Of a stretch of DNA of 64,000 bases, positions 15,219-29,882 are shown piece after piece. The translations under genes were made by a program, and so were the position numbers. Source of the DNA: Escherichia coli. Lineage in GTDB: Bacteria; Pseudomonadota; Gammaproteobacteria; Enterobacterales; Enterobacteriaceae. The notes beneath the pieces were generated by a model. The model saw only the letters and a list, made by a program, of their open reading frames with translations. It was not told the DNA's origin and made no database searches. Positions within the stretch are counted from its first letter, which is position 1. Every line of letters starts with the position of its first letter. The stretch is from assembly GCF_044647545.1 (NCBI RefSeq), contig NZ_CP172818.1. One strand, 5' to 3'.

Positions 15219-15242
15219 CATTAGGCACAGCCTATTGACAAT
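15219..15242. promoter_or_regulatory. Operator-like element in racR-ydaS divergent promoter region
   Basis: cattaggcacagcctattgacaat plus nearby palindrome ttaggcgtcgcctaa (15247..15261). Confidence 0.45.
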
Positions 15243-15290
15243 TGCGTTAGGCGTCGCCTAATATTTCTGTGTGTTTTTGGAGTTCATTCG

Positions 15291-15587: not shown

Positions 15588-15609
15588 AACATCAAGAGGC
15601 AAATGATTC

Positions 15610-16032
15610 ATGAAAATCAAGCATGAGCACATCGAATCAGTGTTGTTTGCCCTAGCAGCCGAAAAAGGGCAGGCATGGGTAGCCAATGCAATTACTGAAG
15701 AATATCTGCGCCAGGGGGGCGGCGAATTGCCCCTGGTTCCAGGCAAGGACTGGAACAATCAGCAGAATATCTATCACCGTTGGTTGAAAGGTGAAACGAA
15801 AACGCAAAGAGAAAAAATTCAGAAGCTGATCCCAGCAATTCTGGCAATCCTTCCGCGCGAGCTGCGTCACCGACTCTGCATCTTCGATACCCTGGAACGC
15901 CGTGCATTACTGGCGGCGCAGGAAGCGTTAAGTACGGCAATTGATGCGCATGATGATGCAGTCCAAGCCGTTTACCGGAAAGCGCATTTCAGCGGCGGCG
16001 GTTCTTCCGACGATTCTGTCATTGTTCATTAA
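15610..16032 (+). CDS. ydaT: Rac prophage protein YdaT
   Basis: 140-aa ORF immediately downstream of ydaS. Confidence 0.88.
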   Translation: MKIKHEHIESVLFALAAEKGQAWVANAITEEYLRQGGGELPLVPGKDWNNQQNIYHRWLKGETKTQREKIQKLIPAILAILPRELRHRLCIFDTLERRALLAAQEALSTAIDAHDDAVQAVYRKAHFSGGGSSDDSVIVH

Positions 16033-16044
16033 GCAAAAGTTTCC

Positions 16045-16902
16045 ATGCTGTTTGTGCTTATTCTAAGCCACCGGGCAGCATCATACGGGGCAATTATGGC
16101 CGCATTACCATACATGCAACTGTACATAGCTGATTACCTGGCTGACACCATGCATTTGTCAGCAGAGGAGCATGGTGCGTATTTGTTGCTGATGTTCAAT
16201 TACTGGCAAACAGGAAAGCCAATACCTAAAAACAGGCTGGCAAAAATTGCCCGTCTGACTAACGAGCGATGGGCTGATGTTGAACCATCCTTGCAGGAGT
16301 TTTTTTGCGATAACGGCGAGGAATGGGTGCATCTTCGGATTGAGGAAGATCTGGCATCAGTCAGGGAAAAATTAACCAAAAAATCAGCCGCAGGAAAAGC
16401 ATCTGTTCAGGCCAGAAGAAGCAGAAAGGAAGCAGATGTTCAAACAAAACAAGAGAGAAATTTAACAGGTGTTCAAACAGATGTTGAAGTGGTGTTTGAA
16501 CATGATGTCAACACAAAGGCAACTAATAAAGATACAGATAAAGATCTAAAAACAGATCCCCCCCTAAATCCCCCCCGGGGGAATCGAGGTGTCAAAAAGT
16601 TTGACCCTCTGGATATTACTTTGCCGAACTGGATTTCTGTCTCGCTTTGGCGTGAGTGGGTTGAATTTCGCCAGGCATTGCGAAAACCGATTCGAACGGA
16701 GCAGGGCGCTAACGGGGCGATACGGGAGCTGGAAAAATTCCGCCAGCAGGGTTTTTCACCTGAGCAGGTGATTCGACACAGCATCGCCAATGAATACCAG
16801 GGCTTGTTCGCGCCGAAAGGTGTTCGACCTGAGACGTTACTCCGACAGGTTAACACCGTCTCGTTACCGGATAGTGCGATCCCGCCAGGCTTCAGGGGGT
16901 AA
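16045..16902 (+). CDS. ydaU: Replication initiation protein (lambda O-like role), YdaU
   Basis: 285 aa; internal iteron-like repeats and AT-rich segment in mid-gene. Confidence 0.8.
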   Translation: MLFVLILSHRAASYGAIMAALPYMQLYIADYLADTMHLSAEEHGAYLLLMFNYWQTGKPIPKNRLAKIARLTNERWADVEPSLQEFFCDNGEEWVHLRIEEDLASVREKLTKKSAAGKASVQARRSRKEADVQTKQERNLTGVQTDVEVVFEHDVNTKATNKDTDKDLKTDPPLNPPRGNRGVKKFDPLDITLPNWISVSLWREWVEFRQALRKPIRTEQGANGAIRELEKFRQQGFSPEQVIRHSIANEYQGLFAPKGVRPETLLRQVNTVSLPDSAIPPGFRG

Positions 16903-16908
16903 CTGACC

Positions 16909-17655
16909 ATGAAAAATATTGCGACAGGCGATGTTCTTGAACGTATCCGCAGACTGGCCCCGTCACATGTAACCGCGCCATTCAAGACGGTAGCGGAGTG
17001 GCGCGAGTGGCAACTTTCCGAAGGCCAGAAACGTTGTGAGGAGATCAACCGTCAGAATCGTCAGTTGCGGGTGGAAAAAATTCTGAATCGCTCTGGCATC
17101 CAGCCATTGCACCGCAAATGCTCGTTTTCGAATTACCAGGTGCAGAACGAAGGGCAGCGATACGCGTTGAGTCAGGCGAAATCCATCGCTGATGAACTGA
17201 TGACCGGGTGTACAAATTTTGCGTTCAGCGGAAAACCTGGTACCGGGAAGAACCACTTAGCGGCAGCTATCGGGAATCGCCTGCTGAAAGACGGTCAGAC
17301 AGTGATTGTGGTTACCGTGGCTGATGTTATGAGTGCCCTGCACGCCAGCTATGACGATGGGCAGTCAGGCGAAAAATTTTTGCGGGAACTGTGCGAAGTG
17401 GATCTGCTGGTTCTTGATGAAATTGGCATTCAGCGCGAGACGAAAAACGAGCAGGTGGTACTGCACCAGATTGTTGATCGCCGGACAGCGTCGATGCGCA
17501 GCGTGGGGATGCTGACAAACCTGAACTATGAGGCCATGAAAACATTGCTCGGCGAGCGGATTATGGATCGCATGACCATGAACGGCGGGCGATGGGTGAA
17601 TTTTAACTGGGAGAGCTGGCGTCCGAATGTCGTCCAGCCAGGAATTGCGAAGTAA
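16909..17655 (+). CDS. ydaV: DnaC-like helicase loader YdaV
   Basis: 248 aa; Walker [16 protein letters not shown], Walker B LLVLDEIG. Confidence 0.88.
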
Positions 17656-17677
17656 TTTTTACCGGGAGAAAAATTTA

Positions 17678-18199
17678 ATGGAGACTGTTTTTGACGCACT
17701 GAAAGCAATGGGAAAAGCCACATCCATAGAACTTGCTGCGCGACTTGATATCAGTCGTGAAGAAGTGCTGAACGAACTATGGGAACTGAAAAAGGCTGGT
17801 TTTGTTGATAAAAGCGCGTACACCTGGCGTGTGGCTGATAACAATGTTCAGCAGGAACAGCCAGCGCAGGCAGAACTGCCGGAAGAAATCACCACAGCAA
17901 CAGTAGCGAAAATCTCAGAGTGCGATTTAACCGCGACGATTGAACAACGAGGACCACAAACGGCTGATGAGCTGGCTACATTGTTTGGTACCACATCACG
18001 CAAAGTGGCTTCAACGCTGGCAATGGCAATCAGCAAAGGTCGTCTGATTCGCGTAAATCAGGGCGGTAAATTTCGTTACTGCATACCGGGCGATAATTTA
18101 CCAGCAGAGCCGAAAGCAGCATCGGTATCTCCGCTCTGGTTATCTGCATCATCGTCTGCCTGTCATGGGCTGTTAATCATTACCGTGATAACGCCATGA
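17678..18199 (+). CDS. ydaW: Putative winged-helix DNA-binding protein YdaW (possibly remnant)
   Basis: ATG with gggag SD at 17678; 3' end overlaps Rz-like frame. Confidence 0.5.
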
Positions 18200-29153: not shown

Positions 29154-29882
29154 GAAGATATTCCTTAAAATATTATTGATTTTCATTGCGATATTGTATG
29201 TCTGATTCAGGATATGTTGACTTATACATCGGTTTTGTCTGGTTATTGGATATGCCAATCCCTAATTTTATTAGAGCATGACTAAAAATGCTGAATATGA
29301 TAAGGAGCGAAGTGATTATCAGTATGCTGTTCATATAGCCTCGAATTAGTAATGTGTTATATATGATATAGTTGACAATTTTTATCCTGGGTGTTCTTAA
29401 AGTTCGTAGATAAACATTGTCGTTTCAGGTATACAGGAATGCTAACAGGTGGCGGCAAAAATCAGGCGGTTTATGGCGCAAGCTGAAGTGGCAACTGCAA
29501 ACTATCTTATGCAGAGACTCTACACGGATTGGGTTTAAAAGTATACATAGATAACAGTTTTTATCTGAAGAAGAAAAATATCAAGGTGATATAGCCTATA
29601 TGCCTTTGATGCGGAGGAATGAATGTGATGGGAGTGATGTATCTGAATAGTTGAAAAACCGCAGTCACGTCGTATGCAAGAACGTGCTGCGGTTGGTTTG
29701 ACTTTGATTGAGACGTTTTGGAATTTTTTTCGGTGGCAAAAATGGGGCAAAACGCTGCAAAAGGGGCAAAAAAGGGGCAAAAAAAGAGTGGATTATCGTA
29801 GCTTATTGTTGTCGCTGATGATATTTAACACATTGAAAAATAAGTAAAATACTTATGAGTCAGAGAGTTGTGATTTTTGCCC

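Follow-up and report, generated by a model that had tools for sequence, protein, structure and literature searches.

This analysis concerns a segment in the middle of ydaU, a gene of the cryptic Rac prophage of Escherichia coli K-12, for which an earlier note had proposed a replication origin of the phage lambda type. It was carried out on a stretch of E. coli DNA of 64,000 nucleotides (contig NZ_CP172818.1), called the window in the following, and all positions are counted from its first letter. Over 15600-17700 the sequence agrees at 100% identity with that of E. coli K-12 MG1655, and ydaU is a 100% match to MG1655 ydaU; a window position equals the NC_000913.3 position minus 1,405,074. The genes ydaS-ydaT-ydaU-ydaV-ydaW form a rightward operon opposite the repressor gene racR. 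A promoter-like site on the plus strand (15235..15264) lies upstream of ydaS, opposite racR, and transcription starting there would cross the proposed origin. In the K-12 reference record YdaU is named just as a DUF1376 protein, and neither oriJ, the name given to the Rac origin, nor any other origin feature is annotated.

The gene ydaU (16045..16902, plus strand) is the proposed initiator gene. Its product matches Pfam PF07120 (DUF1376) over amino acids 22-104 with E = 5.1e-26, which is the only Pfam domain found, and it has two PHROG matches, the N part to 'primosomal protein' and the C part to 'replication initiation O-like'. PHROG and tblastn matches split the protein at amino acids 141-172, and some phages have the N part only and others the C part only. 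An AlphaFold2 model built with 29 homologues predicts a confident helical, hairpin-containing N-domain that leads through a long helix and a disordered stretch (model residues 125-170) to a helical C-domain. The winged-helix-like DUF1376 N-domain together with the long helix is encoded by 16096..16467 (plus strand) and is proposed to be the origin-binding, dimerising part. The C-terminal helical domain, encoded by 16582..16902 (plus strand), is proposed to contact the helicase loader YdaV, and it is common to O-like proteins that are paired with DnaC-like loaders.

The loader gene ydaV follows at 16909..17655 on the plus strand. YdaV is matched by Pfam IstB_IS21 (1.1e-19) and Bac_DnaA and by the PHROG profile for DnaC-like helicase loaders. 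It also scores above the cut-off of the NCBIfam subfamily PRK12377. With the DnaC equivalog it reaches 309 bits against a cut-off of 357, and we thus regard it as a DnaC paralogue and not as DnaC itself.

Repeats and A-rich stretch in the ydaU linker

The core sequence TGTTCAAACA occurs in exactly three perfect copies in the window, all of them inside 66 bp of ydaU. Copy 1 (16437..16446, plus strand) is part of ATGTTCAAACA at 16436-16446, and copy 2 (16470..16479, plus strand), 33 bp away, is part of GTGTTCAAACA at 16469-16479. Copy 3 (16493..16502) lies 23 bp from copy 2 on the minus strand, where the plus strand reads TGTTTGAACA, the reverse complement of the core. The core can be written as TGTT-CA-AACA and has internal dyad symmetry; its general form is the quasi-palindrome TGTT-N2-AACA. 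Two degenerate sites on the plus strand belong to the same cluster, namely TGTTGAAG at 16482..16489 (motif GATGTTGAAG, 16480-16489), 11 bp from the centre of copy 2, and TGTCAACA at 16507..16514 (motif GATGTCAACA, 16505-16514). The centre-to-centre spacings are 33, 11, 12 and 13 bp. In the structural model, the disordered stretch covers copies 2 and 3 as well as the A-rich stretch and the C-tract described below, while copy 1 falls on the low-confidence end of the long helix. The GC content is 0.32-0.37 across 16420-16560.

The cluster stands out from its surroundings. It is the only locus of the window at which any non-trivial 10-mer occurs at least three times within 70 nt, and no 10-mer cluster of that kind was seen in 100 dinucleotide shuffles. 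When synonymous codons were resampled with the amino-acid sequence kept fixed, a 10-mer in three copies was obtained in 0 of 20,000 trials, and at least three GTT-N1-2-AAC sites were reached with P about 0.002. Codon choice alone is therefore not the explanation of the repeats. In a window-wide scan for repeated 7-mers the ydaU cluster ranked second, behind a cluster near the right end of Rac.

Among 43 E. coli haplotypes, common polymorphisms spare the three core copies and strike the two degenerate motifs. Positions 2-10 of copy 2 are invariant and only its first T varies, in 2 haplotypes; variants of copy 3 are rare (1-2 of 43). The least conserved of the three is copy 1, which has a C > A variant in some alleles. 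The core copies are also kept in an induced phage whose YdaU is 99.3% identical.

After the repeats comes an A-rich, strand-asymmetric stretch of 47 bp (16511..16557, plus strand; A27 C7 G6 T6 over 16511-16556), which we propose as the DNA unwinding element. The 40 bp from 16520 onwards have a stability of -43.3 kcal/mol, which makes them the least stable duplex of the ydaS-ydaW operon and places them at the 99.2nd percentile of the window. The stretch is a decayed (GATACA)n/(GATAAA)n microsatellite that encodes KDTDKDLKTD, and the homologous position in relatives is occupied by (GATACA)n, (AACCAG)n or (GAAGA)n microsatellites. Copy numbers of (GATACA)n vary from 1 to 5 units among close relatives in Leclercia, Citrobacter and Kluyvera (L091-L097), and a 6-nt indel in the microsatellite separates E. 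coli alleles (L072, L077 and L079 against the other type B alleles, a class defined below). Judging by these differences between close relatives, slippage alters the length of the proposed unwinding element. Two GATC sites lie in the Rac stretch, at 16543 and 16555. In the A-rich stretch of enterobacterial members (including L090-L101) the Dam sequence GATC reaches 23 per kb, compared with 3.8 per kb in the remainder of the loci, about six-fold more, in a count over related and thus not independent loci. In this respect the stretch resembles the unwinding region of oriC, which is rich in GATC.

The next element on the plus strand is a tandem repeat of ATCCCCCCCTAA followed by G5 (16556..16581), which consists of C7 (16558-16564), TAAAT (16565-16569), C7 (16570-16576) and G5 (16577-16581). 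It encodes PPLNPPRG and forms the left boundary of the C-domain module. The 12-bp unit ATCCCCCCCTAA is present in 2 copies in 52 loci and in 3 copies in L002 (E. coli O145), and a C6 variant in L010 frameshifts ydaU, so that the C-tract has to be regarded as slippage-prone. It is retained beside other N-domains in L003 and in phage mEpX1. A similar C5-7/N3-5/C5-7 element opens the same C-domain in mEpX1 and in homologues from Bordetella and Achromobacter; the loci in which a C-tract was noted are L002, L010, L003, L149, L008, L131 and L138. Proline is encoded by CCC throughout the element, and this may point to a constraint on the DNA itself or to a slippage switch. A hairpin between the C5 and G5 runs was considered and dropped, as single-strand folding was no better than in shuffles (z = -0.73). 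The segment 16430-16585 contains no promoter-like or terminator-like site and gave no Rfam match even at E <= 1.

The earlier note had listed five related motifs in both orientations in the middle of ydaU, an A/T-rich stretch after them and then C7-TAAAT-C7-G5. All five motifs are present at the positions given for them, but only the three perfect copies are conserved, and the two degenerate motifs commonly differ between E. coli allele types. The A/T-rich stretch is where it had been placed, and so is the homopolymer tract, although the latter belongs to the start of the C-domain module (PPLNPPRG) and not to the cassette of the N-domain.

Conservation of the sites in the DUF1376 family and module exchange

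Related loci were collected by a scan with the N-domain alignment, taking one genome per species. This yielded 59 loci from Citrobacter, Kluyvera, Serratia, Pseudomonas, Acinetobacter, Achromobacter, Bordetella, Methylococcaceae and others, to which three phage loci were added. In most of them a conserved GKAS motif is immediately followed by GTT(C/G)AAC cores, two to four in number and in many cases in the form CGTTCAACG, and a microsatellite comes next. In the 49 loci that could be anchored on GKAS, the density of GTT(C/G)AAC is 12.0 per kb in the first 100 nt past the motif and about 0.15 per kb elsewhere in the 4.3-kb loci. Spacings of 11 bp were found 14 times, of 22 bp 6 times, of 33 bp twice and of 55 bp 5 times, in addition to three long gaps of 116-122 bp. 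The consensus unit of the family is an 11-bp repeat centred on CGTTCAACG, of which Rac and its close enterobacterial relatives have the 8-bp-core variant GTT-NN-AAC. After dereplication to 26 linker clusters, at least one site remained in 21 and at least two in 13; altogether there were 37 sites in these 26 linkers, compared with 1.18 in codon-order shuffles. In a 7-mer repeat scan that does not presuppose a motif, the window with the densest repeats lay within the linker for 36 of the 63 loci, and in the lambda control it fell on the annotated iterons. Divergent N-domain subfamilies have other 11-bp-phased repeats in place of GTT(C/G)AAC, such as AACCCAG nine times (L120), GTTCCAACGG six times, and TGCGCGC.

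These data bear on the idea that the repeats in the DNA simply follow from a repetitive peptide (DVQT/GVQT/DVEV/DVNT), part of a low-complexity linker made by slippage, and have no function as DNA. The direct copies in ydaU are indeed in frame, 11 codons apart and encode (D/G)VQT, the linker is disordered in the model, and microsatellite slippage is clear nearby. However, one copy is inverted and encodes VVFEH, the core in the homologues uses five of the six classes of frame and orientation and encodes differing peptides, and neither codon-order nor synonymous shuffles reproduce the repeats. This explanation was thus already disfavoured; it fits the data poorly and is the least probable of those considered here. 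The repeats are constrained as DNA.

Besides the linker array, the family sites are concentrated a second time, at 5.9 per kb, in the interval 100-200 nt upstream of GKAS, the anchor that marks where the linker starts. In Rac, a perfect family-consensus site GTTGAAC lies at 16278..16284 (plus strand) within the coding region of the N-domain (D-V-E-P), and several homologues (L006, L101, L104, L135 and L140; DVERTLNEFF, AVEQVLNEFF) have two GTTGAAC-type sites 11 bp apart in theirs. These sites may be an auxiliary binding site or a trace of the way in which the linker array came about.

For an analysis of alleles and breakpoints we used a set of 80 near-identical E. coli loci from viral contigs, which do not inform on distant relatives, complemented by several genomes. 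One and the same combination of N-domain, repeats and A-rich stretch is found fused to three types of C-domain. C-type A is paired with YdaV in 56 of 58 loci, C-type C likewise in 4 of 4, and C-type B is paired with a loader resembling lambda P in 15 of 17. The breakpoints lie at about 16540 (type B) and about 16557 (type C), which means that the N-domain is always accompanied by the repeats and by no less than the first half of the A-rich stretch, while the C-tract, as the start of the Rac-type C-domain module, is outside the cassette that moves with the N-domain. In strain AR_0067 (L003) the same C-domain is joined to a different N-domain, and the linker there has its own GTAAC/GTTAC repeats. 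Phage mEpX1 differs from Rac in having a Phage_rep_O N-domain and three classic iterons TGTCTC..GAGACA with a 24-bp period, where Rac has DUF1376 and TGTTCAAACA. The iterons are followed by an A-rich stretch, by CCCCCTATATCCCCC (C5-N5-C5, the CCCCC-N5-CCCCC at the start of the C-domain), by the YdaU-type C-domain (KFDPL..LP(D/N)W..W) and by a DnaC-like loader gene downstream. The order of N-domain, repeats, A-rich stretch, C-tract and C-domain is the same in both, and the Rac repeats therefore occupy the exact position of the iterons in a recognised O gene.

One could object that the segment is a mere recombination junction, where homology allows modules to be shuffled, and that it plays no part in replication. 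In favour of such a reading, the allele breakpoints cluster at about 16540-16560, and ACTAATAAAGATACAGAT and the C-tract are common to otherwise different modules. It leaves unexplained, however, the 11-bp-phased quasi-palindromic sites upstream of the breakpoints and their change with the type of N-domain, and an origin cassette, like those of lambdoid O genes, should show clustered junctions as well. We therefore consider this reading a poor fit and highly improbable.

In some alleles an extra domain of about 110 amino acids and of unknown function (phrog_1347) is inserted precisely where the proposed origin cassette meets the C-domain, and in other loci a 'VKIGYSKNPW..LNELR' domain follows the N-domain. 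Loci with extra domains near the module junction include the type C alleles L046, L051, L087 and L089 (phrog_1347) as well as L106, L111 and L116. These domains may be nuclease-like insertions.

A probable replication origin of Rac

In lambda, ori lies inside the initiator gene O, between the parts encoding the N-terminal origin-binding and the C-terminal loader-binding domains, and the Rac repeats have the same placement in ydaU, at nt 393-470 of 858 compared with nt 349-433 of 900 in O. In both cases the repeated sites have internal dyad symmetry and precede a stretch that is A-rich and strand-asymmetric. The two stretches have almost the same composition (A27 C7 G6 T6 in Rac, A26 C7 G5 T8 in lambda) and 40-bp stability (-43.3 kcal/mol in Rac, -43.0 kcal/mol in lambda); in lambda the least stable 40-bp window starts right after iteron 4. 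The sites themselves differ, with three strong 10-bp copies, one of them inverted, in Rac and four direct 18-19-bp copies in lambda, and so does the loader, which is DnaC-like in Rac and P in lambda. The modular rule of lambda is that the sites go with the N-domain and the C-domain with the loader. In the E. coli alleles the same rule is observed, as Rac-type sites follow the N-domain and the C-domain follows the loader.

The ydaU segment thus contains an element that acts as a unit of DNA sequence and, in the cases examined, varies together with the N-domain. It stands where lambdoid O genes have their origin, and a stretch prone to unwinding comes next. On the basis of this analysis we consider it likely that 16430-16557, within the codons for the disordered linker of YdaU, is the cis-acting replication origin of Rac, probably oriJ. 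The lambda-like layout in the linker that the earlier note had claimed agrees with the domain split, the disorder model and the A-rich composition. Its view of ydaV as a DnaC-like gene of an O/P-type module was borne out by the Pfam, PHROG and NCBIfam matches and by the C-domain type, which tracks the loader type. Its description of ydaU as 'O-like' is correct for the architecture and for the family of the C-domain, but it does not extend to sequence homology with lambda O, as the N-domain is DUF1376.

We envisage the following sequence of events. YdaU would be produced from the RacR-controlled rightward operon, and its winged-helix-like DUF1376 domain, probably as a dimer, would bind TGTT-N2-AACA at the three perfect sites and at weaker ones, which should lie on roughly one face of the helix given their spacings. 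The nucleoprotein complex formed in this way would destabilise the adjoining 47-bp A-rich stretch. The C-domain of YdaU would then recruit the DnaC-like YdaV together with host DnaB, and DnaB would be loaded onto the opened DNA. We infer DUF1376 binding, unwinding, YdaV-mediated loading of DnaB and origin activity from the lambda paradigm and from patterns in Rac and its relatives that match it.

The main rival explanation is that the repeats are sites for YdaU or another protein with a regulatory role, for instance in autoregulation or as a roadblock that tunes ydaV expression, and that the true origin is elsewhere in Rac. The comparative data establish sites at the DNA level that change with the N-domain and do not tell what these sites do; in addition, the same motif has its second concentration inside the coding region of the N-domain, and published 'oriJ' primers, discussed below, map to ydaV. 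On the other hand, the equivalent position holds origin iterons in mEpX1 and in lambda, the sites always have an unusually unstable A-rich stretch after them, GTT(C/G)AAC is not enriched near promoters within 2 kb on either side, and no other comparable repeat cluster is present in the replication region. A purely regulatory role is therefore unlikely in our view.

oriJ as an origin of Rac that was genetically defined, by cloning, is reportedly due to Diaz and Pritchard (1978) and Potrykus et al. (2000, Plasmid 44:111). In the parts of the open literature that we consulted, Rac, the same prophage that contains the ydaU segment, is described as having an active origin, oriJ (PMC3945230, legend to Fig. 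S3; PMC11014345, reference 62), and these passages cite Potrykus et al. 2000. No paper mapping oriJ was found in the open literature, in a search that did not extend to the primary oriJ papers, and older papers may already place oriJ at the ydaU segment. The same literature search found nothing that connects DUF1376 to an origin.

Several observations weigh against our assignment. The Rac sites are short (10 bp) and few when compared with the four 18-19-bp iterons of lambda, and copy 1 is variable in some alleles. YdaU has no sequence similarity to lambda O (BLASTP, E = 0.77; likewise none for the P-partnered allele L005), and its N-domain is DUF1376 and not Phage_rep_O; both proteins match phrog_678, but via different parts. 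The loci that were compared are phylogenetically related, so that the counts are not fully independent, although the signal survives dereplication. A recent paper terms Rac replication-defective. Finally, the sole 'oriJ' primers that we found, published as 'framing oriJ' (PMC3945230, supplementary file 4), map within ydaV (17167-17185 and 17303-17321), about 650-800 bp downstream of the ydaU repeats. The last two points could be taken to mean that oriJ is outside ydaU, for example in ydaV or upstream, and that the ydaU repeats are relics of an ancestral origin. However, the sequence between the primers is the Walker A region of ydaV, in which the repeat scans detected no cluster, and the primers may merely mark the locus. 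Moreover, a relic would decay, yet the core copies are kept across the 43 haplotypes and in the induced phage. The relic reading thus fits poorly and is very unlikely.

The proposed ydaU origin was also compared with other known systems. Iteron plasmid origins (pSC101, R6K, P1, F and RK2, with winged-helix Rep proteins) differ in that the Rac sites are inside the coding sequence of the initiator and a phage-encoded loader recruits the helicase. In addition, plasmid iterons have DnaA boxes beside them, and no DnaA box (TTWTNCACA) was found within the Rac replication region or near ydaU. For the 13-mers of oriC (GATCTnTTnTTTT) there was one match with 2 mismatches at 16546-16558, and the window contains 17 such matches compared with 24 expected, so that these were discarded as well. 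oriL of the Bacillus phage SPP1 is located in gene 38, which encodes the replisome organiser G38P, and comprises initiator sites and an AT-rich region, with the helicase loader gene next to it. This layout in an initiator gene is similar to that of Rac, but neither the proteins nor the sites are related to those of Rac, and SPP1 infects a Gram-positive host.

Implications and further observations

It is about as likely as not that DUF1376 proteins are a widespread, uncharacterised class of phage and prophage initiators in Proteobacteria with one shared type of origin. The shared design may consist of quasi-palindromic GTT-N1-2-AAC sites or equivalents specific to a subfamily, such as AACCCAG, phased at 11 bp in the codons for the disordered linker of the initiator, with a coding microsatellite as the unwinding element. 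If this is true, slippage in microsatellite length could tune origin firing, and with the Rac segment E. coli K-12 itself would offer the first member open to experiment. The Rac assignment taken by itself would locate a long-known unmapped origin to the base pair, in the bacterium that has been studied best, and would give a function to DUF1376. The lambda design would have been rebuilt with an unrelated DNA-binding domain, with the N-domain and its sites as one exchangeable cassette and the C-domain and loader as another. For origin annotation, 11-bp-phased GTT(C/G)AAC plus a microsatellite immediately past GKAS could be used as a signature in prophages and phages of Enterobacteriaceae, Pseudomonas, Acinetobacter, Achromobacter/Bordetella and others. 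Specialists will be only mildly surprised, given that Rac is a lambdoid prophage whose possession of an origin has been known since the late 1970s.

A Foldseek search of YdaU against the PDB returned nothing at E <= 0.001. By sequence, the only similarity to solved structures was a weak one between amino acids 210-285 and the C-terminal domain of DnaT (2ru8, E = 0.0027; 9zbt, E = 0.01); a profile search did not confirm this resemblance, its sole return being an unrelated entry, Gogy, at E = 0.038. The dnaT-dnaC pair is laid out like ydaU-ydaV, with the DnaC-type loader second, but DnaT differs from YdaU in having no DUF1376 domain and no known origin in its gene. A plasmid search for YdaU-type replicons gave just prophage-like or partial matches and was uninformative.

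The annotated start of ydaU (16045, MLFVLILSHRAASYGAI...) may be 17 codons too long, as homologues in Pseudomonas phages and the P-partnered E. coli allele start at MAALPY, which corresponds to position 16096 of the window.

The top short-repeat window of the 64 kb, at 29733-29786, consists of five copies of (G)GGGCAAAA(A) with a spacing of about 10-11 bp (GGTGGCAAAAAT, GGGGCAAAAC, GCTGCAAAA, GGGGCAAAAAA and GGGGCAAAAAAA). As this cluster lies about 100 bp inside the right end of Rac, it may represent arm-type Int sites or Xis sites near attR.

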